From the IMG/VR virus record IMGVR_UViG_3300029305_002455: 38,691 nt of DNA. One strand, 5' to 3'. The stretch comes from a virus. A program made the position numbers and the translations under genes. Of the stretch, positions 15,527 through 32,001 are shown piece after piece (position 1 is the first letter of the stretch; each line of letters starts with the position of its first letter). The notes beneath the pieces were generated by a model, which was given only the letters and a program-made list of their open reading frames with translations, made no database searches and was not told where the DNA came from.

Positions 15527-17062
15527 TTATATTTTCATAAAAAGTTCTATGATGAAATTGGACCTAGCATCTTCGTTCCACCTGCCACCTTTGTCTTTTT
15601 CATATGTAATTTTATCAATTATATAAGATAGTAGTTTATTTCTGTCTGCCATAGATAAAGAGTGATATTCGTTTAAGCAATTTTCAATAACAGGTATAGC
15701 CTTTATTTTGTGATTAAGTTCTGCATTTTCCAACTGACTATTTAAAGTGCTTTTTAAGGCATTTAAGCGATTTTCTTCTTCTCTAGTATAATTCCTTAAA
15801 AAAGTATATTCATCTTCAGTAATCTTGTTTCTATTGTAGTTTACAAGTGCATTTTGCAAATCTTTGTTTAAAAGTTCTAGTTCTTTGTCAATTTTATTGA
15901 TTTTTTTATCAATAGCATTAGTTGATGTTTTAATTTCTTCTTCATAGTTATCTAAAAATTGTTTATAACTATTTAGTTCTTTTTTTAGAAGTTCTATAAC
16001 TCTATCTTCAACTAAAGTTAAGTCAGAAGATACACATTTGCATCCAATAGTTTTGCATATTAAAGTTGGAACAGGTCTTTTGTCATAAGGTCTTCTAACC
16101 ATATTAGAGCCACAGTATTTGCATTTTACAAGTCCTGCAAGTGGATTTTTAATAGTTTTATCACTTCTAACATTTTTAGATGCTTTAGATTTAAGCAACT
16201 CTTGTGCTTTATTAAAAATATCTTCACTTATTATAGGAGTATGTAAGCCTTTAACTCTTAAGTAGTCATTGTTAACAGGTCGAGATTTTAATATTTCGCC
16301 ATCTTGCATAGTTTTTTTGCCTTCCCTTCTGCCATAAGAAACATAGCCAATATATATTTCGCTCATTAAAATGTTTCTAGTCATTGCAGGTGTCCATTGT
16401 TTGCCAGTATGACTTTTTATTCCTAGTTCAATTAAATGTTTTGCGAGATTAGTTGTTCCCATACCTTCAAGGAATTTTTCAAATATGTATTTTACATTTT
16501 CAGTATCTTTATTTGGAGTTAGAGTATAACCCTTTTTAGGCAGTTTGATTTTATCATAACCATAAGGAGCAACAGAACCGATATAAAGCCCATCTTCGAC
16601 ACTTCTAATCCTGCCCCTAACTAGAATCTCTTTTACATATTCCAAGTAGTCATTGCCCCTTAAAAGTTCTTGTTCAAAATATTTTCTATCGAATTTATTG
16701 TTTAAATCATAAACTTTAGTTGGAGTAATTACTTTAGTATTAGTATATTTAAAAGTGTTTACTATTCTATCAATGTCGCCAAAACTACCACGAGAAAGTC
16801 TTTGTGGTTCAACAACTATGACATCATCAACAAGTCCTAGTTCTATATCTTTTAGTAATTTTAGCATCATAGGTCTTTCATTTATAGTTTCGCCAGATAC
16901 AACTTCACGATATATGCAATCTTCAGGGATCTGTTTTCCAAAAACTCTTATGCAGTAGTCTTGTAACATTTTTTCGTGTCTTGATAAAACTTCTTCAACA
17001 CTTTCAGATTGATTGTCAGTCCTTGATTTTCTCAAGTACATTATGATTTTTCGCCTTATCAT
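15527..17062 (-). CDS. Large serine recombinase (integrase)
   Basis: 511 aa; N-terminal resolvase motif YLRKSRTDNQ; recombinase domain; Cys-rich zinc ribbon (CKYCGS...CKTIGCKC); coiled-coil C-terminus; SD AGGAG 8 nt before ATG 17062. Confidence 0.9.
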   Translation of the reverse strand: MIRRKIIMYLRKSRTDNQSESVEEVLSRHEKMLQDYCIRVFGKQIPEDCIYREVVSGETINERPMMLKLLKDIELGLVDDVIVVEPQRLSRGSFGDIDRIVNTFKYTNTKVITPTKVYDLNNKFDRKYFEQELLRGNDYLEYVKEILVRGRIRSVEDGLYIGSVAPYGYDKIKLPKKGYTLTPNKDTENVKYIFEKFLEGMGTTNLAKHLIELGIKSHTGKQWTPAMTRNILMSEIYIGYVSYGRREGKKTMQDGEILKSRPVNNDYLRVKGLHTPIISEDIFNKAQELLKSKASKNVRSDKTIKNPLAGLVKCKYCGSNMVRRPYDKRPVPTLICKTIGCKCVSSDLTLVEDRVIELLKKELNSYKQFLDNYEEEIKTSTNAIDKKINKIDKELELLNKDLQNALVNYNRNKITEDEYTFLRNYTREEENRLNALKSTLNSQLENAELNHKIKAIPVIENCLNEYHSLSMADRNKLLSYIIDKITYEKDKGGRWNEDARSNFIIELFMKI

Positions 17063-18803: not shown

Positions 18804-19112
18804 ATGAACCAAATAATAATTGTAGGTAGATTAGTTGAAAAACCTATTTTAGAAGAAAGTGAAAATGGAAGAAAGGTAAGTACAATAACATTAGCAGTAC
18901 ATAGAAGTTTTAAAAATGATGAAGGGTATTATGAAACAGATTTTATACCTTGTAATTTAGTAGGACAAACTGCAGAAACAACTTGTGAATACTGTCAAAA
19001 AGGTGATGTTATTGGTGTTAAAGGCAGACTTGCTAGATTAAGCAAACAAGATTTGCAAGTAATAGCAGATAGAGTAACATTTTTAAAAAGTGGCAGAAGG
19101 GAAGAAGAATAA
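18804..19112 (+). CDS. Short OB-fold SSB-like protein lacking the acidic C-terminal tip
   Basis: 102 aa; MNQIIIVGRLVEKPILEESENGRKVSTITLAVHRSFKNDEGYYETDFIPC... parallels the N-terminus of the 20973 SSB. Confidence 0.6.
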   Translation: MNQIIIVGRLVEKPILEESENGRKVSTITLAVHRSFKNDEGYYETDFIPCNLVGQTAETTCEYCQKGDVIGVKGRLARLSKQDLQVIADRVTFLKSGRREEE

Positions 19113-20793: not shown

Positions 20794-20980
20794 AGTAATT
20801 AACCAAAAAACAATGGACCAATACAAGGTTATAGAAGATAGATATTTGACATTAAAAAAATATTTAAGATTACAAATGCAAAAACATAGTTTTATATCAG
20901 CAGAAGATATAGAAATGATAATTAAGTCTTTAGAAGATGAACCAATAGAAAAAGATAAGGAGAAAAAAAATAATGAATAA
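20774..20980 (+). CDS. Hypothetical protein
   Basis: 68 aa; SD GGAG 9 nt upstream. Confidence 0.45.
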   Translation: MINVMNEVINQKTMDQYKVIEDRYLTLKKYLRLQMQKHSFISAEDIEMIIKSLEDEPIEKDKEKKNNE

Positions 20981-21395
20981 AATATTTCTGACTGGAAGAA
21001 CTACTAAAGAAATTGAAACAAGATATACACCATCTGGAATACCAGTAGTACAATTTATTTTAGCAGTTACAAGAGATTATAAAAATGCTAATGGAGAATA
21101 TGAAAGTGATTTTATAAATTGTGTAGCATATAAACATAATGCAGAAGCATTAAAAAATTGGGTTGAAAAAGGAGATAAGATAGGAATTGAAGGACATTTA
21201 CAAACTAGAAAATATCAAAATAAAGAAGGTAAAACTGTTTATGTAAGTGAAACAATAGTTGAAAAAATAGAATTTTTACAACCAAGAAAAAAAGAAGAAA
21301 ATGTATCAGAAATAGAACCTAAAAAAGAAGAAAGTGATCCATTTGCTGAATTTGGAAATGAAATAACATTAACTGATGATATGCTACCATTTTAG
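20973..21395 (+). CDS. ssb: Single-stranded DNA-binding protein
   Basis: 140 aa; OB-fold N-terminus; acidic C-terminal tip ...DDMLPF. Confidence 0.8.
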   Translation: MNKIFLTGRTTKEIETRYTPSGIPVVQFILAVTRDYKNANGEYESDFINCVAYKHNAEALKNWVEKGDKIGIEGHLQTRKYQNKEGKTVYVSETIVEKIEFLQPRKKEENVSEIEPKKEESDPFAEFGNEITLTDDMLPF

Positions 21396-25653: not shown

Positions 25654-25881
25654 ATGAATATAGGTTCAGTAGTTCAATTTAATAGCAACCATAAATGGGC
25701 AGGTTCATTAGGAATTATAGAAGAAATAAAAGATTATGCAGAAGAACCAGAAATGATTAGATATTTAGTAGGAGTACCAGTACCAAGACAAGGAACTGCA
25801 TATATATTTGTAATGGCTAACGAAAATGCTATTGAATACATAGGGGAAGCAGTAATGACAGTAAGGAAAGATGAAGAATGA
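25654..25881 (+). CDS. Hypothetical protein
   Basis: 75 aa. Confidence 0.45.
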   Translation: MNIGSVVQFNSNHKWAGSLGIIEEIKDYAEEPEMIRYLVGVPVPRQGTAYIFVMANENAIEYIGEAVMTVRKDEE

Positions 25882-26177
25882 AAGAAGATTTAGAACATAT
25901 TATTTTAAATTATGGAGTTGAAAAACAAACAACAATTTGGATTGAAGAATTAAGTGAACTGATAAAAGAAATTTGCAAATGGCAAAGAAATTATGATAAA
26001 TGGGATGTAGATTTACCACAAGAAAATTATGATAAAATAACAAAAGAAATGGCTGATGTTGAGAATATATTAGAACAAATGAAAATAGTTTTAAACAATA
26101 ATCAAATTGTTCAAAATGAAAGATATTTAAAAAATAAAAGAGAATTAGAAAGGATCAAAAATGAAAAAGTTAAGTGA
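25878..26177 (+). CDS. Possible MazG-like all-alpha NTP pyrophosphohydrolase
   Basis: 99 aa; ...WIEELSELIKEICK...ITKEMADVENILEQM... resembles the EExxE...E-x-x-D pattern (weak). Confidence 0.3.
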   Translation: MKEDLEHIILNYGVEKQTTIWIEELSELIKEICKWQRNYDKWDVDLPQENYDKITKEMADVENILEQMKIVLNNNQIVQNERYLKNKRELERIKNEKVK

Positions 26178-26376: not shown

Positions 26377-26438
26377 TTTTATTCATATTAGCAATTATAT
26401 TTATATTATATTGCATATTGAAAATTGGAAAGGATTAA
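26373..26438 (+). CDS. Tiny hydrophobic peptide (21 aa): MILFILAIIFILYCILKIGKD
   Basis: ATGA overlap with the upstream stop; SD AAGGAG 5-6 nt upstream; same design as 20066..20134. Confidence 0.35.
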   Translation: MILFILAIIFILYCILKIGKD

Positions 26439-26439
26439 T

Positions 26440-26472
26440 TTGCACACAAAACACAATTTGAAATGATATAAT
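26440..26472 (+). promoter_or_regulatory. Promoter-like element P1: TTGCAC, 21-nt spacer, TGaTATAAT
   Basis: Extended -10 TGATATAAT at 26464..26472; the upstream box TTTGCACACAAAACA recurs at 26860. Confidence 0.45.
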
Positions 26473-26478
26473 GATATT

Positions 26479-26845
26479 GTGATAATATAAAATCACGATA
26501 GAACCCATAATAAAATAGCAACTTTATAAGTTGCTACATAGTAGACAACCATTTTTCGTTAATCTCAATTAACAAATGGATGCTATCTTTTTATATTTCA
26601 TTGTCTGCTATGTAGGTGCTTATAAAAAACACCAATGATCCATAATAAAAAAGTGCTATCTTAATTGATAGCATACTAAATAATATGAAAAATTACTAAA
26701 GAAGTAAGGAATGTATGAATGAAAATTTAGAGTAATATTATTTAGTATGGTGTCTATATTAAGATACTACTCCCGACAACTAAAGGAGTATAAATATAAG
26801 GTTGCTAGAAAAGCGATAGAACATAGAAATATGGTCTATTTTTTA
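26479..26845 (+). ncRNA. Candidate about 365-nt structured non-coding RNA (ends approximate; strand not certain)
   Basis: ORF-free. Contains a 9-bp hairpin (26516..26536), a 15-bp long-range helix (26534..26548 with 26601..26615), an enclosed 12-bp hairpin (26549..26579), a 7-bp hairpin (26654..26673), a 15-bp perfect helix (26672..26686 with 26735..26749), and a GAAA-loop hairpin plus T-run (26816..26845). Confidence 0.4.
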
Positions 26846-26860
26846 AAGATAAAATGAAAT

Positions 26861-26894
26861 TTGCACAAAAAACAACATAAATATGTAGTATAAT
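26861..26894 (+). promoter_or_regulatory. Promoter-like element P2: TTGCAC, 22-nt spacer, TATAAT
   Basis: Same TTTGCACA-AAAACA box as P1; TATAAT at 26889..26894. Confidence 0.4.
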
Positions 26895-26900
26895 AGTAAA

Positions 26901-26971
26901 GTAAGGTTATTGAATCTTACAAGCAATTCTCTTTTTTGTAAAGCCATAGTAAAATATGGCTTTATTTTTTT
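26901..26971 (+). ncRNA. Candidate about 70-nt sRNA (P2 to terminator)
   Basis: Lies between TATAAT (26889..26894) and a strong terminator; 5-bp hairpin GTAAG/CTTAC (26901..26920); no ORF. Confidence 0.4.
26940..26971 (+). terminator. Rho-independent terminator
   Basis: 9-bp stem AAAGCCATA/TATGGCTTT, 6-nt loop, then ATTTTTTT. Confidence 0.75.
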
Positions 26972-27002
26972 ATAGAGAATAGCAAAGAAAATGGAGGATT
27001 GT

Positions 27003-27593
27003 ATGGAAGAAAAAAGAATAGAAGTTGTAGAATTAAAAGTTTCAGAATTGAAAACCGATTTTGGAAACCCAAGAAAGATTAATAAAAAGAAGTTAGAAGA
27101 ATTGGAACAGTCATTAGATACCTATGGAGATTTTGGTCTTATATTAGTTGATGAAAACAATAATATTATTGCAGGAAATCAAAGAGTATCAGTATTAAAA
27201 AATAAAGATGAAGATACAAAGGTTTTATGCAAAAGATTAATTGGTTATACAGAAGCAGAATTAAGAGCAATAAACATAAAAGATAACACTCATAACGGAG
27301 AATGGGATCTAGATTTATTGGCAGACTGGACTGCAGATTTGAATTTAGATTTAGGAATAGATTTAGATAATACTAACCCAGAAGAAAAAAGCATTCCAGA
27401 TATGGAGTTAATACATTATGAAAAGTATGATTATGTAATGATAGTTTGTAGATATGAAACAGATTATAATGACCTAGTAAGAAAATTAGGTATTGAAGGT
27501 AAGAAAGTAAAGATATGCAAGACTAGAAAAATAAAAGCCAGAGCAATTTGGTATGAAGATATGAAAGCACAAATTATTGAAAAGGAGAATTAG
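27003..27593 (+). CDS. ParB/Srx-type N-terminal domain protein (no methylase or ParA partner)
   Basis: 196 aa from ATG 27003 (SD GGAGG 5 nt upstream); ...LKTDFGNPRKI... and ...IIAGNQRVSVL... correspond to ParB-NTD boxes. Confidence 0.6.
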   Translation: MEEKRIEVVELKVSELKTDFGNPRKINKKKLEELEQSLDTYGDFGLILVDENNNIIAGNQRVSVLKNKDEDTKVLCKRLIGYTEAELRAINIKDNTHNGEWDLDLLADWTADLNLDLGIDLDNTNPEEKSIPDMELIHYEKYDYVMIVCRYETDYNDLVRKLGIEGKKVKICKTRKIKARAIWYEDMKAQIIEKEN

Positions 27594-28262
27594 ATGAATT
27601 ATTTATTTGTAGTAGCACATCCAGATGATGAAGTATTAGGAGCAGGAGCAACAATTAATAAATTAATTAAAGAAGGAAATGAAGTAACAGTTTGCATATT
27701 AAGTGATAATTCCAAAACTAGATTTGATAATTTAAAAGATAAATTATATAAAAGTCATAAGATATTAGGAATAAAAAATACAATAATAGGTGATTTTAGA
27801 TGCTTGAACTTTAAAGATGAACCACATCAAGAAATGGTCCAATTTATAGAAGAATCAATAAGAATTAGCAAACCAGATATAGTGTTTACTCATACTCCAT
27901 CAGACATAAACCCAGACCACGAAGCAACTGCATTGTCTTGTATAGAAGCAGTAAGATTGCCACAAAGGTTGCTAGATTATAATAAGCCAATTAAGGAATT
28001 GTTATATATGGAAGTTAAATCATCTACTGATTGGCAGTTAAATAGAACAGTACAAGAGTTTTTACCTAACACATATAATGAAGTTAGTAAAGAAGATATG
28101 GAAAAGAAAATAGCAGCACTCAAAGTATATGATGGTGTAGTAAGGGATGATCCACATCCTAGAGCAGAAAATGTAATTAATGCACTAGCAGTAGTAAGAG
28201 GTAGCGAAAGTGGTTATAAATATGCAGAAGCATTCCAAAGTGTTTTTAAGTTAGGAGTTTAG
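27594..28262 (+). CDS. LmbE/PIG-L family de-N-acetylase
   Basis: 222 aa; VVAHPDDEVLGAG and HTPSDINPDHEA (zinc ligands of the PIG-L fold). Confidence 0.75.
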   Translation: MNYLFVVAHPDDEVLGAGATINKLIKEGNEVTVCILSDNSKTRFDNLKDKLYKSHKILGIKNTIIGDFRCLNFKDEPHQEMVQFIEESIRISKPDIVFTHTPSDINPDHEATALSCIEAVRLPQRLLDYNKPIKELLYMEVKSSTDWQLNRTVQEFLPNTYNEVSKEDMEKKIAALKVYDGVVRDDPHPRAENVINALAVVRGSESGYKYAEAFQSVFKLGV

Positions 28263-28265
28263 AAG

Positions 28266-28964
28266 ATGAAGATAGCAATACATCAGCCAGATTATATTCC
28301 TTGGTTAGGTTATTTTTATAAGATATACTTGTCAGATGTTTTTGTATTTTTAGATGATAGTCAGTTCCAGAAGAACTATTTGAATAATAGAAATAAGATA
28401 AAGACACCACAAGGATGGACCTATTTAACAATACCAGTTGAAAGAAAAGATGGACTTTCAACTAATATCAATGAAACTAGAACAATAGATGAAATGAACT
28501 GGAAAGAAAAGCATCTGAAAGCATTAGAAATGAATTATAAAAGATGCCCTTATTTTAATGAAATATTCCCAGAAATAAAGGAATTAATAGAAAAAGAATA
28601 TAATAATTTGGCAGAATTAAATGAAGCCTTAATTATTCATATAGCGACTAAATTTGGAATATTACCAAAGGTTGTAGTAGCATCATCAACATTAAATATT
28701 AAAAGCACTAAAGAAGAAAGAGTATTAGAAATATGCAAAAGATTTAATGCAGATGAATATTTATCTGGAAATGGTGCTAAAGATTATCAGAATGAAGAAG
28801 ATTTTATAAAAGAAGGCATAAAATTAACCTATATAAATTATAAGCCGATAAAGTATAGTCAAAGATTTGGCGAGTTTATAGAATGTATGTCAGTATTAGA
28901 TTATATATTTAATAAAGGTTATGATTTTGAATACATCATAGGAGAAATAGAAGGTACAGTATGA
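28266..28964 (+). CDS. WbqC-like family protein
   Basis: 232 aa; MKIAIHQPDYIPWLGYFYKI...FLDDSQFQK...NRNKIKTPQGWTYLTIPV is the family's N-terminal signature. Confidence 0.65.
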   Translation: MKIAIHQPDYIPWLGYFYKIYLSDVFVFLDDSQFQKNYLNNRNKIKTPQGWTYLTIPVERKDGLSTNINETRTIDEMNWKEKHLKALEMNYKRCPYFNEIFPEIKELIEKEYNNLAELNEALIIHIATKFGILPKVVVASSTLNIKSTKEERVLEICKRFNADEYLSGNGAKDYQNEEDFIKEGIKLTYINYKPIKYSQRFGEFIECMSVLDYIFNKGYDFEYIIGEIEGTV

Positions 28965-29674
28965 AAGAAGTTACATTAGGAATTTATGTTCAAAGTTATA
29001 AAAGAAGTGATAAGATATTAACTGCTAATCTTTTAGAAGATTGTACTTATGTAGTAAGAAAATCAGAAGAAGAAGATTATAAAAAGGCAGGAATAAAGAA
29101 AATATGGGCGATAGATGATGAATTAATAAATAATGCAATAAAAACATACTGGTATATCATAACAAATGCTCCAGAAGATATAGTTTTTGTAGCAGATGAT
29201 GATATAGAAGATTTAATGTATAGATTAGATGATACAACACCAATGAAGCAAGACAAAGAAACCATAATGGCAGAAATAGAAAGAGTTGCACAATTAATGG
29301 TTGATTTAAAGGTCGGTTATGCTTGTATAGATGCAACTGCTACTCCATATAACTATGATGGAGAATTTGCATTTAAAGGTACTTCTGGCTCAATTAAATG
29401 GGTATATAAAGAAGTATTCAAAGCAAAGATGGATGAAAGTGTACCATTTAACTATGATTTAGATTTAGTATTGCAGGAGTTACTATATAATAGAATCATC
29501 TTAAAACCTAGATATATAGTAGGTAAAGATTATCAAGATACTAATGCAGGAGGCGATAGTAGTAAGAAAAGGCAACAACAAATAGATAGTATATCTAATA
29601 TGCAGTTAAAATGGGGAAAGTATTTTGGTTATAACTTCAAAAGCAATAAACCAAAAATAAATGTAAAAAGATAG
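28961..29674 (+). CDS. Hypothetical enzyme-like protein with DxD-type acidic motif (possible GT-A-like transferase)
   Basis: 237 aa; 4-nt overlap with the WbqC-like gene; beta-alpha start (VTLGIYVQSYKRS...) and VFVADDDIED; the call is weak. Confidence 0.25.
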   Translation: MKEVTLGIYVQSYKRSDKILTANLLEDCTYVVRKSEEEDYKKAGIKKIWAIDDELINNAIKTYWYIITNAPEDIVFVADDDIEDLMYRLDDTTPMKQDKETIMAEIERVAQLMVDLKVGYACIDATATPYNYDGEFAFKGTSGSIKWVYKEVFKAKMDESVPFNYDLDLVLQELLYNRIILKPRYIVGKDYQDTNAGGDSSKKRQQQIDSISNMQLKWGKYFGYNFKSNKPKINVKR

Positions 29675-29722: not shown

Positions 29723-29751
29723 TTGACAAATGTTTCCAAAAAGTTTACGAT
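29723..29751 (+). promoter_or_regulatory. Promoter P_B: TTGACA, 17-nt spacer, TACGAT
   Basis: Consensus -35 with exact 17-nt spacer. Leader has a 9-bp hairpin TTGTAATAA/TTATTACAA (29756..29782) and SD AAAAGGAGAG. Confidence 0.6.
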
Positions 29752-29810
29752 ATCGTTGTAATAAAACAACAAATTATTACAAAAAGTTACAAGAAAAGGA
29801 GAGTTGTCAA

Positions 29811-30023
29811 ATGAGAAAATTATTTATTGAAGGTAGAAGAAATGGTTATGACCCAGAACAATGTGGAGGAACAATGACAGTAAGGGATCTGATAGATTTC
29901 TTAAAAGAATTTGATGAGGACACAGAAGTATATTTAAAAAATGACAATGGTTATACTTATGGGAACATAGACAGATGGAGTTTTGAAGAAGATGAAGAAG
30001 AAGGTGAAGATAATGAGTTTTAG
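29811..30023 (+). CDS. Small acidic protein (70 aa)
   Basis: ATG 29811 after SD AAAGGAGAG (the track start 29730 lies in the promoter); C-terminal EEDEEEGEDNEF. Confidence 0.5.
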   Translation: MRKLFIEGRRNGYDPEQCGGTMTVRDLIDFLKEFDEDTEVYLKNDNGYTYGNIDRWSFEEDEEEGEDNEF

Positions 30024-30231
30024 AGAAGAAAACAAATTATTAGAAGCCTTTGGATGCAAAGAAGCTAAATATGATTTTTTAGTAAATAACTATTGCATCA
30101 AATTTATCTATAATGACAAGAAGTTTATAGCAGAACATATCTTAAATATATATGGAGAAGCAGTAGACTTCTGGGAGTTAGAAGATAAAAGATTTGATAC
30201 ATTAGAAGAACTATTAAATTATATCAAGTAA
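30013..30231 (+). CDS. Small hypothetical protein (72 aa)
   Basis: ATG 30013 with SD AAGGTGA; overlaps the upstream gene by 11 nt. Confidence 0.45.
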   Translation: MSFREENKLLEAFGCKEAKYDFLVNNYCIKFIYNDKKFIAEHILNIYGEAVDFWELEDKRFDTLEELLNYIK

Positions 30232-30256
30232 GTGAAAGGGATCTGTTCCCTTTCCA

Positions 30257-30275
30257 ACTTGAATTTAATTCATAA
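30257..30275. promoter_or_regulatory. Operator site 4: ACTTGAATTTAATTCATAA
   Basis: Follows a hairpin (30234..30254). Extra half-site ACTTGAA 29 nt downstream (30286..30292), abutting the -35 of P_C. Confidence 0.55.
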
Positions 30276-30300
30276 AAATTAAAAAACTTGAAAATTAATC

Positions 30301-30329
30301 TTTACAAAGAAAGTTAAAAAGATTACGAT
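30301..30329 (+). promoter_or_regulatory. Promoter P_C: TTTACA, 17-nt spacer, TACGAT
   Basis: Same -10, same downstream (C)GCTTGTAATAAA box and same SD AAAAGGAGAGTTG as P_B. Confidence 0.6.
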
Positions 30330-30368
30330 ACGCTTGTAATAAATAATAAATAAAAGGAGAGTTGCTTT

Positions 30369-30776
30369 ATGGAAAGAAAAGAAATGAAAAGAGAAGCATT
30401 AGTAAGGATGCAAATGTTACATCTAAATGAGGATGCAATCAAAGATTTCCAAGAAAATGAAAAGGCTTGGAAGAGTGAAACTAATATGGGTATCTTATAT
30501 TGGTTGAATGAAGAAGAAGAAAAGATGGTAAAAGAATTTGAAGAAAGTACAGGAGGACTTGTTTATCATCTAATTCATAACAGATATGAAGAAATTGGTG
30601 AATGTTACTCAATATTCTATGTAAGTAAAGAAGAAAGCGAATGGGAACTTGATAGATATGATATCAATGATTTTTACCCATTTGTATATGTAAAGAACAT
30701 AGATGATGAATATTGTTCAGAATTTGGACACATAGGAATTAGACCAGTAAATAGTGGTTTAGTAAGGGAGTGTTAG
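30369..30776 (+). CDS. Hypothetical protein upstream of ArdA
   Basis: 135 aa; SD GGAGAG 8 nt upstream. Confidence 0.5.
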   Translation: MERKEMKREALVRMQMLHLNEDAIKDFQENEKAWKSETNMGILYWLNEEEEKMVKEFEESTGGLVYHLIHNRYEEIGECYSIFYVSKEESEWELDRYDINDFYPFVYVKNIDDEYCSEFGHIGIRPVNSGLVREC

Positions 30777-30778
30777 TT

Positions 30779-31309
30779 ATGGAACTATTAAATGTAGCAG
30801 TTACTAATTTAGGAAGATACAATGAAGGTTATTTAATCTTTGAATGGTTGAAGTTACCTGCAACAGAAGAAGAAATTCAAGAATGTTTCAAAAAGATAGG
30901 TTTAAATGAACAATATGAAGAATATTTCATTACAGATTATGAAAGTGATGTTGGATTGAAATGTAGTGAATATTCAAATCTAGAAGAATTGAATGAAATG
31001 GTCCAAGAATTAGAAGATGTAACTAAAGGAGATTATGACAAGTTAGAAGCAGTAATTGAAAGAGATTATATGGGAGATAACTTGCAACACATTATGGAAG
31101 TAATGGAAGATGATGATGTTTATTTCTATAAAGGTTATACTGCTGAAGAATATGAACAATATTATGTTAGAGAATGTTATGATTTAAGTTTTATGAAAAA
31201 TGGTTGGTTATCAAATTACATTACAATAGATTATGAAGCAATGGCAGAAGAAGATAATCAAATATATGAAACAGATAAAGGAGTATTAGTAGATAGAAAT
31301 TATTGTTAA
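30779..31309 (+). CDS. ardA: ArdA anti-restriction protein (DNA mimic)
   Basis: 176 aa from ATG 30779; ...VTNLGRYNEGYLIFEWLKLPATEEEI...IGLNEQYEEYFITDYESD... parallels Tn916 Orf18/ArdA; very acidic. Confidence 0.8.
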   Translation: MELLNVAVTNLGRYNEGYLIFEWLKLPATEEEIQECFKKIGLNEQYEEYFITDYESDVGLKCSEYSNLEELNEMVQELEDVTKGDYDKLEAVIERDYMGDNLQHIMEVMEDDDVYFYKGYTAEEYEQYYVRECYDLSFMKNGWLSNYITIDYEAMAEEDNQIYETDKGVLVDRNYC

Positions 31310-31329: not shown

Positions 31330-32001
31330 ATGGCTTATGAATTAATAACCAAGAATGGACACAATATGTATGATATGGCATCAATGTTACAAAAAGCAAT
31401 AAGAAGAAATGATGTAGAAAGAGCAAGTTATGCAGGTTACCAATTATTTGGTAACTTCCATACTTACTTATGGAAACGATTGGTTGTAATATCAGCAGAA
31501 GATTGTTATGGAATAATAACAAAAGAAATAATAGCATTAAAGTTAGCAGATGATGAAGTAAACAAAGGAAAGAAAGGTTATAACAAAGACCCATTATTTG
31601 TAGCCAAAGCAATAGTTCTGTTATGTATGGCAAGAAAGAATAGGGATGCTTGTTATGTTGCTTGTAACTTTATGCTACCAGATAAAATACTAGATGAAGA
31701 TGAAATAGAACACATAGATATTTCAAAAGTAGAATTAAAAGGAGATATACCAGATTGGGTGTTTGATGTTCATACATTGAAAGGAAAGATAAATGGAAAG
31801 ACAGATTTAGATATGACAATATCAGAACAAAGAGCATTAACACCACATCAAGTAGGATTATTTGATGACGCAAGTTGGGAACCATACTATACAATGGCAA
31901 GAAGTCAAGGGAAATGTAATGACAGGGAATGGGCAAAATTCCAACAATTCAAACAAGGCAAAGAAGCCAATCCACAACAAGTAAACATAATAGAAGATTA
32001 A
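31330..32001 (+). CDS. Stand-alone MgsA/RarA C-terminal-domain-like protein (no AAA+ module)
   Basis: 223 aa from ATG 31330 (SD AAGGAG 9 nt upstream). ...MYDMASMLQKAIRRNDVERASYA..., ...KRLVVISAEDCYG..., ...AKAIVLLCMARKNRDACY... align with the MgsA_C motifs HYD-ISA-HKS-RGSD, RRL-I-ASEDIG, A-IYLA-APKSN. Confidence 0.55.
   Translation: MAYELITKNGHNMYDMASMLQKAIRRNDVERASYAGYQLFGNFHTYLWKRLVVISAEDCYGIITKEIIALKLADDEVNKGKKGYNKDPLFVAKAIVLLCMARKNRDACYVACNFMLPDKILDEDEIEHIDISKVELKGDIPDWVFDVHTLKGKINGKTDLDMTISEQRALTPHQVGLFDDASWEPYYTMARSQGKCNDREWAKFQQFKQGKEANPQQVNIIED

Follow-up and report, generated by a model that had tools for sequence, protein, structure and literature searches.

Phages that glycosylate their DNA encode their own GT-A/TAGT-type transferases, such as the alpha- and beta-glucosyltransferases of T4 and the TAGT beta-glucosyl-HMC alpha-glucosyltransferase of T2/T6. 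To our knowledge, all characterised DNA glycosyltransferases require a hydroxyl acceptor made by a TET/5mYOX enzyme, a dCMP/dUMP hydroxymethylase or hydroxylase, or a C5-methyltransferase. Mom of the temperate phage Mu, a GNAT-like acyltransferase acting on adenine N6, modifies a canonical base after replication, late and under tight control, and needs no precursor base. We know of no sequence relation between Mom and any protein discussed below. Characterised TAGT relatives glycosylate DNA (PMC13390438), and Pyle et al. described metavirome MT+5mYOX+GT clusters, with HexNAc reported on 5hmC (bioRxiv 10.1101/2023.12.21.572611). Short phage ParBs without an HTH activate 5mYOX thymine dioxygenases on dsDNA (O'Toole et al. 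2026, PMC13229309). The phages SP-15, YerA41 and Carin-5 have oligosaccharide hypermodifications of thymidine (PMC12686479). The bacillithiol (BshA-BshB-BshC) and mycothiol (MshA-MshB-MshC) pathways make a GlcNAc glycoside, deacetylate it with a PIG-L-family enzyme and ligate a group onto the free amine.

The locus described here lies in a phage window of 38,691 nucleotides (IMG/VR record IMGVR_UViG_3300029305_002455), the window being the whole stretch of DNA that was analysed. Four of its genes, g1 to g4, are one variant of a widespread phage module whose third core gene, c1, lies further downstream (Table 1). Like the DNA glycosylation pathways, the module encodes a GT-A/TAGT-type transferase and belongs to a non-structural array close to the terminase, where ParB-like genes and enzymes that modify sugars are its neighbours. 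Unlike those pathways, it has no 5mYOX/TET, no ThyA-like hydroxymethylase or hydroxylase and no C5-methyltransferase, and it has obligate ParB-like and RarA-C-like partners. Its enzymes for de-N-acetylation and re-acylation after transfer occur in no described DNA pathway. SP-15, YerA41 and Carin-5 also have glycan-bearing DNA linked to a gene block in which glycosyltransferases stand with sugar-nucleotide enzymes and a predicted GlcNAc N-deacetylase, but they are large lytic phages in which a hydroxyalkyl-uracil linker is made beforehand, the block lies beside the DNA polymerase, and a ParB-like or RarA-C-like core was not reported for them (PMC12686479). The window phage resembles Mu in being temperate and, on the reading preferred here, in a late, post-replicative modification without a precursor base, and it differs in chemistry and sequence. 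That reading, held tentatively and somewhat short of probable, is late, post-replicative glycosylation of phage DNA, the presumed acceptor, followed by de-N-acetylation and re-acylation.

Table 1. Position and description of the module genes and adjoining features in the window.
Feature	Position	Strand	Description
g1	27003..27593	+	short ParB/Srx-type protein, 196 aa; core
g2	27594..28262	+	PIG-L/LmbE zinc de-N-acetylase, 222 aa; accessory
g3	28266..28964	+	WbqC-family protein, 232 aa; accessory
g4	28961..29674	+	GT-A glycosyltransferase, TAGT type, 237 aa; core
c1	31330..32001	+	stand-alone RarA/MgsA C-terminal-domain protein, 223 aa; third core gene
ArdA insertion	29730..31309	+	four small genes, the last ArdA; outside the conserved module
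terminator-like hairpin	26938..26971	+	11-bp stem, 6-nt loop, T-run; found by pattern scan
candidate module promoter	26858..26895	+	second AATTTGCACAAAAAACA copy and TATAAT; weak call

The four ORFs and their coordinates agree with an earlier reading made from the sequence only, as do the junctions of 0, +3 and -4 nt, and all the motifs quoted there are found in the translations. The first ORF is open on the plus strand from 26991 or 27003 to 27593; the start at 27003 is preferred because GGAGG lies 5 nt upstream and because homologs start with MEEKRIE or MEKRIE. The terminator proposed upstream is also present, as a hairpin at 26938..26965 followed by a T-run, some 30 nt ahead of the g1 start, and the region holds three terminator-like sites where 0.7 are expected from shuffles. 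It does not simply box in the operon, as had been proposed: among 174 unique related loci, 76 have a terminator-like hairpin no more than 300 nt ahead of the first module gene, versus 2 control windows, and the module continues into the packaging genes. The hairpin likely serves regulation, or else it terminates the preceding unit. The downstream promoter proposed at 29723..29751 does exist as a site (TTGACA-17-TACGAT), but with 23 promoter-like matches in the region versus 35 expected there is no enrichment, and the site therefore carries little weight as evidence. The 17-nt motif AATTTGCACAAAAAACA occurs at 26437..26453 and again upstream of g1 (direct repeat D3, 94% identical), with a TATAAT about 14 nt after the second copy, a spacing that is not sigma-70-like. 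This second copy and its TATAAT might serve as the module promoter, a weak call. A sigma-like regulator is among the genes of the phage (23918..24283).

About 300 related loci were fetched, and g1 and g4 occur together throughout them; 98 of the loci are unique and have full context. The g1 gene is accompanied by g4 in all 98 and by c1 in 95. Loci anchored on g1 contain g4 in 67 of 67 cases and c1 in 65, and those anchored on c1 contain both g1 and g4 in 61 of 62. PIG-L is present in 66 of the 98 unique loci and WbqC in 56, in 55 of these together with PIG-L and never with an ATP-grasp ligase, which is a mutually exclusive alternative to WbqC in other variants. Some loci have an Nmad1 ('nucleotide modification associated') domain between g3 and g4, and other inserts include PseB/PglF-like, DegT, PglD-like and Glf genes. 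The constant core is thus g1, g4 and c1; the PIG-L and WbqC set can be absent or give way to one of several other sugar-tailoring sets, and the four genes are not the functional unit that the sequence-only reading made of them. Its assignments of the single proteins, including a weak DxD/GT-A call for gene 4, all agree with the profile and model results given below. No prior description of the g1-g4-c1 module was found in the searchable literature.

The module lies immediately upstream of the terminase genes across phages with different terminase and portal types. This is the usual site for genes of pre-packaging DNA modification, and both the position and the Nmad1 domain of some loci favour a DNA substrate. 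The trio is found in phages of Clostridia, Bacteroidales and Actinobacteria, that is, three phyla, and in both lytic and temperate phages; the window phage itself is temperate, with a serine recombinase at 15527..17062. Cultured Microbacterium cluster EC phages, which are strictly lytic (PMC7302621), carry the trio, which therefore does not have a lysogenic-conversion function, and this too favours DNA. The Microbacterium phages Paschalis and Quhwah are among the carriers of the trio. The module is phage-linked, and therefore not confined to ordinary polysaccharide loci, although the PIG-L+WbqC pair alone does occur there. Tad2-like anti-defence genes lie near the module in some loci. Against the PADLOC defence models, g1, g3, g4 and c1 have no significant match and g2 has a chance-level match only (1.2e-3).

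The g1 protein is the most conserved part of the module (median 63% identity). It consists of a ParB-like domain of nucleotide-binding type at the N-terminus, then a linker and a C-terminal domain specific to the family, with no HTH (alignment A2). It matches the PHROG ParB-like profile (6e-25), and its N-terminal 130 residues match phrog_498, the N-terminus of ParB-DNA-methyltransferase fusions (5e-24), suggesting, together with its constant association with g4, a role on DNA. Pfam ParB_N matches under its cut-off (E=0.026), the identical database protein P0241 has a precomputed PF02195 match, and the Paschalis ortholog, which aligns to g1 with a probability of 97.8%, scores 34.9 bits against a cut-off of 26.3. 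These place g1 in the ParB/Srx N-terminal domain superfamily. As the sequence-only reading had it, no methylase, HTH or ParA partner was found; g1 has no Pfam HTH_ParB match, and there is no ParA in the window. In register with Spo0J, the GERR-equivalent reads GNQR (AGNQR), so that the catalytic Glu of GERR is absent, and the g1 profile matches no solved ParB structure; both count against the DNA reading. A chromosome-segregation ParB (CTPase clamp) was rejected, as g1 has no HTH, no GERRxR and no ParA partner. The layout, short and beside a DNA-modification-type enzyme, is that of the ParBs of ParB-dependent 5mYOX systems, but the partner of g1 is a glycosyltransferase, c1 is also obligate and the motif is GNQR; the likeness seen is one of architecture. 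An activator of this 5mYOX-associated kind was also rejected, 5mYOX being absent from the window and from the recurrent neighbours.

The g4 protein has a GT-A fold with a DxD motif and is structurally closest to TAGT. Its own match to Pfam TAGT (PF20691, TET-associated glycosyltransferase; E=1.4e-3) reaches 19 bits against a cut-off of 27.5, which counts against the DNA reading. Among its close homologs, 21 of 28 match at E<=0.01 (best 2e-8), several database homologs have a precomputed PF20691 match, and g4 matches PHROG 842 'beta-glucosyl-HMC-alpha-glucosyltransferase' at 6.5e-7. The DDD motif (D79-D81) is invariant in the family. In structure comparisons with the AF2 model (pLDDT 87), the top BFVD neighbours are TAGT-domain proteins (TM 0.7-0.82), with a T-even-type beta-glucosyl-HMC alpha-glucosyltransferase at TM 0.73, versus generic GT-A enzymes at TMq 0.5-0.59 in the PDB. 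The homolog matches and the closeness of the viral TAGT models suggest a transferase of the DNA-glycosylating type. The PDB neighbours include TarS, which points away from DNA, and phage GT-A enzymes also resemble the teichoic-acid transferase TarP (bioRxiv 10.1101/2023.12.21.572611).

The c1 protein is counted from ATG 31330, and its ORF opens at TTG 31303. Its profile (A4) matches the MgsA_C parts of 2qw6 (4e-5), 2r9g, 3ctd, 8g28, 3bge and RarA 3pvs, with profile positions 8-109 aligned to residues 250-356 of 3pvs, and c1 also matches PHROG 16866. No AAA+ ATPase part was found in c1 with Pfam AAA. A full RarA/MgsA/WRNIP1 was rejected, since the C-terminal domain alone is matched and the AAA+ module is absent; the GenBank label 'AAA-ATPase' on the Microbacterium homologs is misleading because only that C-terminal domain is matched. 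Homology to part of the DNA-replication-associated RarA, in a gene tied to g1 and g4, would fit a DNA substrate. Most related loci have nothing, or a single tailoring gene, between g4 and c1. In the window c1 is displaced by the ArdA island, and the sequence-only reading did not include it in its unit. ArdA (30770..31309; Pfam E=5e-25) has a homolog in 0 of the 297 other related loci, and 30369..30776 has one in 7 of 297. The adjacency of ArdA, which had been taken as a pointer to DNA as substrate, is lineage-specific and therefore no evidence on the substrate.

The g2 protein is a member of Pfam PIG-L (PF02585; E=3e-19, 70 bits against a cut-off of 28), with sequence matches in the PDB to diacetylchitobiose deacetylase (1e-10) and to BshB. 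Across 20 sequences, no substitution occurs at H9, P10, D11, D12, D108 or H109, and g2 retains both the zinc ligands and the general base of the family motif (AHPDDE ... H). The nearest NCBIfam curated family is BshB1 (2e-15, below cut-off); a BshB proper (TIGR04001 equivalog) was rejected at 57 bits against a cut-off of 182.5, and g2 is only related to BshB. The g3 protein belongs to Pfam WbqC (PF08889; 248 bits, E=1e-73). It has no sequence match in the PDB, by single sequence or by profile, and the closest meaningful fold to its AF2 model (pLDDT 95) is BshC 4wbd (Foldseek prob 0.92, E=0.022, TMq 0.45), followed by HUP-class nucleotide-binding folds, and the model resembles nothing else. The modelled fold suggests that g3 may be a nucleotide-dependent ligase for the freed amine, but the similarity to BshC is weak. 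The two genes were a pair before the phage acquired them: chromosomal g3 homologs adjoin PIG-L in Clostridia capsule/EPS loci (WbqC 52-55% identical), where the pair flanks a Bac_transf priming transferase amid Wzz, CpsB, GT4, GT2 and CapK, whereas the phage pair lies between the ParB-like and TAGT genes. This origin in polysaccharide loci also counts against DNA. The chemistry proposed earlier (glycosyl transfer, de-N-acetylation and re-acylation) has gained support from the TAGT-type g4, the conserved PIG-L residues, the BshC-like fold and the ATP-grasp swap. These features are consistent with tailoring of a DNA-linked sugar, as is, by analogy, the predicted GlcNAc deacetylase in the DNA-glycan block of Carin-5 (PMC12686479).

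A difficulty for DNA glycosylation is the acceptor. The complete 38.7-kb genome, the recurrent neighbours of about 220 loci and the annotated Paschalis genome all lack TET/5mYOX, dCMP/dUMP hydroxymethylase or hydroxylase, and C5-methyltransferase, and no TET, ThyA-like enzyme or methyltransferase was found to accompany the trio. A g4 working with the TET/JBP (5mYOX) or pyrimidine hydroxymethylase partner typical of TAGT was therefore rejected for all three.

The module could instead glycosylate a phage protein (a virion, packaging or replication protein), with g1 and c1 as adaptors or substrates and the tailoring genes diversifying the glycan. Virion glycosylation is known in actinobacteriophages, which counts in favour, as do the adjoining head and packaging genes and the second GT and UDP-glucose dehydrogenase-like gene of the cluster EC Microbacterium phages; this would work in lytic phages and needs no special DNA acceptor. 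We consider it unlikely, since g4 is closest in fold and sequence to TAGT enzymes and not to protein glycosyltransferases, the obligate ParB-type and RarA-C-type partners, both from DNA-associated families, are left unexplained, and the module lies in the non-structural arm upstream of the terminase, not beside capsid or tail genes.

A small glycoconjugate for counter-defence or metabolism, bacillithiol-like or a nucleoside/nucleotide-linked aminoacyl-amino-sugar, is quite improbable. The genes would then be a BshA/B/C analogue, with g1 a nucleotide-dependent enzyme and not a DNA clamp. The BshB1 and BshC likenesses support this, but g2 falls far under the BshB equivalog cut-off, the WbqC-BshC match is fold-level only, the transferase is GT-A/TAGT where a BshA-type GT4 would be expected, and the pathway is embedded with DNA-family partners in a phage module. 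The top PDB neighbour of g4, AvpGT, is a nucleoside glycosyltransferase, but the two agree at the level of the fold only (TMq 0.53). Kinases of small substrates are found among the ParB/Srx folds, and anti-defence genes (ArdA, Tad2-like) are nearby in some loci, both in keeping with such a product. A third of the loci retain the core but do without PIG-L and WbqC, and the tailoring sets are diverse, so that surface or polymer glycodiversity fits better than one defined metabolite.

Very improbable is modification of a host envelope polymer (teichoic acid, capsule or lipid-linked sugar) that blocks superinfection or re-adsorption in the manner of prophage TarP or Gtr: the pair borrowed from EPS loci beside a priming transferase, the PseB/PglF-like, DegT, PglD-like and Glf inserts (classic surface-glycan enzymes), the TarS fold match and the temperate window phage favour it, but the trio also occurs in strictly lytic phages (PMC7302621), the hosts are both Gram-positive and Gram-negative (Clostridia, Actinobacteria, Bacteroidales) with different envelope polymers, no membrane protein, flippase or GtrA/B partner is among the recurrent neighbours, the location is a lytic-cycle gene array behind a terminator and not a moron near att, and the obligate ParB-like and RarA-C-like partners are unexplained. 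A lysogenic-conversion glycosyltransferase of the TarP or Gtr kind was likewise rejected for g4, which occurs in the lytic cluster EC phages and has no Gtr-like or membrane partner.

For glycosylation of phage DNA, we infer the donor sugar, the order of steps, the ligase activity of the WbqC protein, the roles of g1 and c1 and DNA as acceptor as follows. The module would be expressed late and act after replication and before packaging. The obligate partners g1 and c1 would load on or open the DNA and thereby activate or target g4 on dsDNA, for which the short ParBs that activate 5mYOX thymine dioxygenases offer a precedent. A HexNAc, probably GlcNAc drawn from the UDP-GlcNAc of the host, would be transferred by g4 onto the acceptor. 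The N-acetyl group of the attached amino sugar would then be removed by g2, and g3, as a BshC-like nucleotide-binding enzyme, may re-acylate the freed amine with a carboxylate, for example an amino acid. The end product would be a bulky glycan, perhaps with a charge, and would keep restriction and other nucleases from acting. With the g1-g4-c1 core kept and the tailoring set swapped in other phages, the module may give rise to glycan diversity.

The conserved unit in this region is a trio: g1, a ParB/Srx-type protein; g4, a glycosyltransferase of the GT-A, TET-associated type (TAGT, PF20691); and c1, a stand-alone protein with the C-terminal domain of RarA/MgsA. Related loci were retrieved through g4 (8 assemblies and 80 IMG/VR contigs, plus 53 loci in GTDB genomes), through c1 (80 IMG/VR contigs) and through g1 (80 IMG/VR contigs). 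Their ORFs were called mechanically as the longest ORF, and some N-termini are over-extended. Once duplicates are removed, 98 loci keep full flanks: all 98 contain g1, 95 contain c1, 66 the PIG-L deacetylase (g2 in the window) and 56 the WbqC-family protein (g3), such counts being unbiased only for genes that did not serve as the anchor. Loci anchored on g1 contain g4 in 67 of 67 cases and c1 in 65 of 67, and g1 and g4 accompany c1 in 61 of 62 c1-anchored loci, so c1 is not mere phage backbone. The sequence-only reading had proposed g1 to g4 as one operon. The four + strand ORFs are where it placed them, with junctions of 0, +3 and -4 nt, but a closed, self-contained operon is rejected, since the core reaches c1 and both PIG-L and WbqC are optional.

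Coordinates of features in the window and in related loci (L-numbers; L223 is phage Paschalis)
Feature	Sequence	Position	Strand	Remark
SSB-family gene	window	18804..19112		Pfam SSB 1e-18
SSB-family gene	window	20973..21395		Pfam SSB 1e-28
Pyrophosphohydrolase-like ORF	window	25878..26177		99 aa
Stretch without ORF of >=40 aa	window	26377..26990		~600 bp
17-nt motif, two copies	window	26437 and 26858		TATAAT ~14 nt after each
Inverted repeat	window	26523-26548 and 26601-26626		26-nt arms
Inverted repeat	window	26664-26686 and 26735-26757		23-nt arms
Terminator-like sites	window	26537-26515, 26673-26654	-
Terminator-like hairpin with T-run	window	26938..26965
g1, ParB/Srx-type	window	27003..27593	+	196 aa
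g2, PIG-L deacetylase	window	27594..28262	+
g3, WbqC family	window	28266..28964	+
g4, TAGT-type GT-A	window	28961..29674	+
Sigma-70-like site	window	29723..29751
Island between g4 and c1	window	29730..31309		97, 82 and 135 aa, then ArdA
135-aa island protein	window	30369..30776
ArdA	window	30770..31309
c1, RarA C-terminal domain	window	31330..32001	+
Portal fused to NUDIX	L001	13006-15408
Portal fused to NUDIX	L003	12480-15002
EPS sub-cluster	L089	6677-9799		chromosomal
EPS sub-cluster	L090	5443-8729		chromosomal
Canonical ParB	L100	1456-2874		472 aa
Tad2-like protein	L120	12043-12537
GNAT acetyltransferase	L203	12682-13194
Trio region	L223	47266..51747

The c1 protein is 200-450 aa long across loci. 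Its N-terminal half is homologous to the RarA/MgsA C-terminal (MgsA_C) domain and it has no AAA+ module; lacking an ATPase, it is not RarA. The sole c1-containing locus without g1 and g4, L100, carries a canonical ParB (ParB_N plus HTH_ParB) about 2.2 kb upstream of c1. The arrangement hints that c1 partners ParB-type proteins more generally. Just downstream of c1, about 15 related loci (such as L120) encode a Tad2-like (Thoeris anti-defence 2) protein and others (such as L203) a GNAT acetyltransferase.

In the window, c1 is parted from g4 by a four-gene island ending in ArdA, which had been taken to suggest a DNA substrate for the module. That argument falls, as ArdA is absent from all 297 other loci and the island is thus lineage-specific. 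The 135-aa island protein recurs in seven loci, where it lies upstream of g1. A promoter had been placed ahead of the island; the sigma-70-like site is there, but promoter-like matches are not enriched (23 found versus 35 expected). The terminator proposed upstream of g1 is borne out by a terminator-like hairpin followed by a T-run. The pattern scan finds three terminator-like sites in this region versus 0.7 expected. Of 174 unique loci, 76 have such a hairpin in the 300 nt that precede the first gene of the module, versus 2 control windows. The g1 start given in the table is preferred to the first ATG at 26991 because GGAGG lies 5 nt upstream of it and homologs begin at the equivalent residue.

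The ORF-free stretch that separates the early genes from g1 holds two inverted repeats, and could be a regulatory region or a source of small RNA. It also contains two copies of the 17-nt motif AATTTGCACA[C/A]AAAACA, and this duplicated motif with its TATAAT stands about 45 nt ahead of the hairpin. One reading is that a promoter-leader-terminator layout may head a late transcription unit. An Rfam search of the window returned no family. About 0.8 kb upstream of the module, a small ORF matches phrog_2245, a phage family of nucleoside-triphosphate pyrophosphohydrolases, over the C-terminal part of that family (1e-19), and in L005-L007 a protein with a dGTP_diPhyd_N domain is encoded just upstream of g1, with an ASCH-like protein in L005 and L006 as well. 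The window (38,691 bp, 28% G+C) has a complete temperate siphovirus-type gene complement (tail, lysin, cI-like repressor, TerS, TerL, portal and capsid) and a 511-aa serine recombinase. Its two separate SSB genes are accompanied by genes for an ERF recombinase, a PD-(D/E)XK exonuclease and NinB-like and RuvC-like proteins.

The ParB-like protein g1 is the most conserved member, with a median identity to the window protein of 63%, compared with 52% for g4, 47% for g2 and 38% for g3, and at least 2,043 proteins of the collection belong to its family. Residues 3-134 match the phage ParB-like phrog_620 (6e-25) and phrog_498, the N-terminal module of ParB-DNA-methyltransferase fusions (5e-24). The match to Pfam ParB_N is marginal (E=0.026), and a database protein identical to g1 has a precomputed PF02195 match; searches of GenBank phages with the g1 protein gave only remote ParB matches. 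The family alignment has a strongly conserved N-terminal domain (FGNPRK, GDFG, AGNQR, NIKDNxHxGEWD, LADWTAD), a variable linker, and a C-terminal domain of about 60 residues that is conserved as strongly and matches nothing known. A low-confidence hhalign comparison with an approximate Spo0J sequence (17% probability), which serves for motif register only, lines up FGNPRK, AGNQR and KDNTH with ParB boxes I-III and places an Asn where GERR has its catalytic Glu. Having no HTH, GERR motif or ParA partner, g1 is not a segregation ParB.

The assignment of g4 as a GT-A protein with a DxD-like motif was the weakest call of the sequence-only reading, and it proves correct and more specific than guessed. 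Family members share an invariant DDD motif and, at the N-terminus, a conserved strand-loop, and the g4 model (pLDDT 87) has a GT-A fold with AvpGT, GpgS, WrtF and TarS as PDB neighbours (TMq 0.5-0.59). The closest viral models are TAGT-domain proteins (TM 0.7-0.82), a T-even-type beta-glucosyl-HMC alpha-glucosyltransferase aligns at TM 0.73, and 21 of 28 family members individually match Pfam TAGT. Searches of GenBank phages with the operon DNA and the g4 protein yielded nothing usable, PDB sequence and profile searches nothing for g1, g3 or g4, and NCBIfam has no model for g3, g4 or c1.

The deacetylase g2 is a bona fide PIG-L enzyme (70 bits), with H9, D11, D12, D108 and H109 invariant in 20 sequences and diacetylchitobiose deacetylase and BshB1 as its nearest solved or curated relatives. 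PIG-L enzymes act on GlcNAc glycosides after transfer, examples being MshB, BshB, PIG-L itself and the paromamine and chitobiose deacetylases. Its partner g3 is a clear WbqC-family member (E=1e-73) with no close solved relative. The only meaningful neighbour of its AlphaFold model (pLDDT 95) is BshC (4wbd, prob 0.92, TMq 0.45), which ligates cysteine to the amine of glucosamine. Further neighbours (cytidylyltransferase, FAD synthetase, USP, LarE and class I tRNA synthetase) are all HUP-class nucleotide-binding folds. A literature search on WbqC function found nothing relevant. A true BshABC pathway is rejected, as g2 scores below the BshB equivalog threshold and there is no GT4 BshA; the tailoring branch is alike in style to bacillithiol synthesis, yet the module is not a member of that pathway.

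Chromosomal WbqC proteins of Clostridia are 52-55% identical to g3, and in capsule/EPS loci their genes stand beside those for PIG-L and for a Bac_transf priming transferase, which marks the phage pair as a sugar-tailoring cassette that was borrowed. In the chromosomal EPS loci L089 and L090 of Clostridia, a GT4 enzyme and a CapK-like (adenylate-forming) enzyme come after PIG-L, Bac_transf and WbqC, and this conserved sub-cluster could point to the native substrate of WbqC. Between g1 and c1, the phage loci carry interchangeable sets: PIG-L and WbqC alone, with a PseB/PglF-type 4,6-dehydratase and a DegT aminotransferase, or with a PglD-type N-acetyltransferase; an ATP-grasp ligase with an Orn/DAP/Arg-type PLP decarboxylase; UDP-galactopyranose mutase (Glf); GNAT; a class I methyltransferase; occasionally an Nmad1 ("nucleotide modification associated") domain; or none, with g4 directly after g1. 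Across the 98 loci, WbqC occurs with PIG-L in 55 of 56 cases and never with the ATP-grasp ligase, which suggests that WbqC and the ligase have equivalent roles.

The trio is widespread, and the proposed phage linkage stands: the module occurs in phages and prophages across phyla. Prophages or phage contigs with the trio come from Lachnospiraceae, Oscillospiraceae, Ruminococcus, Roseburia, Faecalibacterium, Lawsonibacter and Peptostreptococcaceae, from Bacteroides, Parabacteroides (a cultured isolate), Prevotella and Muribaculaceae, and from one Treponema MAG. Two unexpected taxa, the Treponema MAG (L181) and a MAG labelled Holosporaceae (L202), could be mis-binned phage contigs and not true hosts. 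The trio is also carried by 56 cultured, strictly lytic Microbacterium cluster EC phages, whose published account merely lists these genes (PMC7302621). In Paschalis, gp84 aligns with the two domains of g1 (prob 97.8%, E=1e-12) and scores above the Pfam ParB_N cut-off, gp85 matches g4 over its full length with DDD retained (prob 89%, E=2e-6), gp86 is UDP-glucose-dehydrogenase-like and gp87 is a c1 homolog (42% identity). The c1 homologs of the 56 phages are labelled "AAA-ATPase" in GenBank, where only the RarA C-terminal domain is present. Just ahead of the Paschalis trio come a sigma factor and a second "glycosyltransferase", gp82, of 441 aa and without a Pfam match. In all lineages the module sits just upstream of the terminase genes, despite differing terminase and portal types. 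The portals of L001-L006 are fused to a NUDIX hydrolase (Phage_portal_3 plus NUDIX, ~800 aa), and in one of these portals an Ntox50 toxin domain is present too. Nucleotide sugars are among the nucleoside-diphosphate-X compounds that NUDIX enzymes cleave.

Three steps are encoded in the window: a TAGT-type GT-A enzyme for glycosyl transfer, a Zn-dependent enzyme for de-N-acetylation, and a third enzyme with a nucleotide-binding fold. The earlier reading is partly supported, in that the amino-sugar chemistry it proposed holds. In order, g4 would attach a HexNAc, g2 would expose its amine and g3 would re-acylate it. For DNA as the acceptor speak the TAGT affiliation of g4, the constant partner g1, which has N-terminal parts of DNA methyltransferase fusions among its closest relatives, the RarA-derived c1, the occasional Nmad1 domains, the pre-packaging gene position and the occurrence in lytic phages. 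Published work points the same way: phage ParBs that lack an HTH activate 5mYOX dioxygenases, and do so specifically on dsDNA (PMC13229309), HexNAc-bearing DNA has been reported (bioRxiv 10.1101/2023.12.21.572611), and the Carin-5 DNA-glycan block holds a predicted GlcNAc deacetylase (PMC12686479).

Pfam and PHROG scans of all early ORFs of the window found no acceptor-making enzyme (TET/JBP, ThyA-like or DNA methyltransferase), nor did Pfam in 26 recurrent neighbour clusters or the Paschalis annotation. To our knowledge, every characterised DNA glycosyltransferase needs a hydroxymethyl- or hydroxy-pyrimidine, or a sugar already on one. Because no acceptor-making enzyme is present, we hold DNA as the acceptor only tentatively, at a little short of even. 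The remainder is shared by glycosylation of a phage protein, synthesis of a small glycoconjugate and modification of a host envelope polymer, the last made less likely by the presence of the trio in lytic phages of Actinobacteria and by hosts that span phyla. About 65% of the GT-containing contigs of Pyle et al. are without 5mYOX or ThyS, and the authors regard these as not obviously DNA-directed (bioRxiv 10.1101/2023.12.21.572611). A lysogenic-conversion function is rejected, since lytic phages carry the trio too and its hosts belong to different phyla.

Within the DNA reading, a bolder and rather unlikely version is that the trio glycosylates phage DNA directly, with no hydroxymethyl- or hydroxy-pyrimidine precursor. 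The sugar could sit on an exocyclic amine of some canonical base or elsewhere on the DNA, and g1 and c1 would give access to the duplex. The swappable sets (PIG-L with WbqC; ATP-grasp with PLP-decarboxylase; PseB/DegT/PglD-like; Glf) would then yield a family of unseen DNA glycans, spread over phages of gut Clostridia, Bacteroidales and soil Actinobacteria. The module works like the phage DNA-glycosylation pathways, yet is not a member of them, and the TET/ThyA association of TAGT systems is missing from it. PADLOC defence-system models gave no match, and the searchable literature, a scope outside which the survey of Iyer et al. 2013, the source of the TAGT and Nmad1 definitions, lies, holds no description of the gene combination.

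This abundant system, conserved across phyla, is common in prophages of taxa that dominate the human and animal gut (Lachnospiraceae, Oscillospiraceae, Faecalibacterium, Bacteroides/Parabacteroides and Prevotella) and in cultured soil actinobacteriophages. Lytic Microbacterium phages bearing the trio are in culture collections, and the question is therefore directly testable. If the target is not DNA, the obligate partnership of ParB-like, RarA-C-like and glycosyltransferase proteins would still mark a process that phages of several phyla have conserved. If it is DNA, this would be the first phage DNA glycosylation route not starting from a TET- or ThyA-type precursor, the second enzyme class, after the 5mYOX dioxygenases, to depend on a short ParB, and the first functional context for WbqC, an orphan family, and for the RarA C-terminal domain as a stand-alone protein; glycosylation without a precursor base would be categorically new. 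Restriction and CRISPR sensitivity, gut-virome sequencing bias and phage engineering would then be affected, and enzymatic DNA glyco-labelling would have a natural toolkit in the interchangeable tailoring enzymes.
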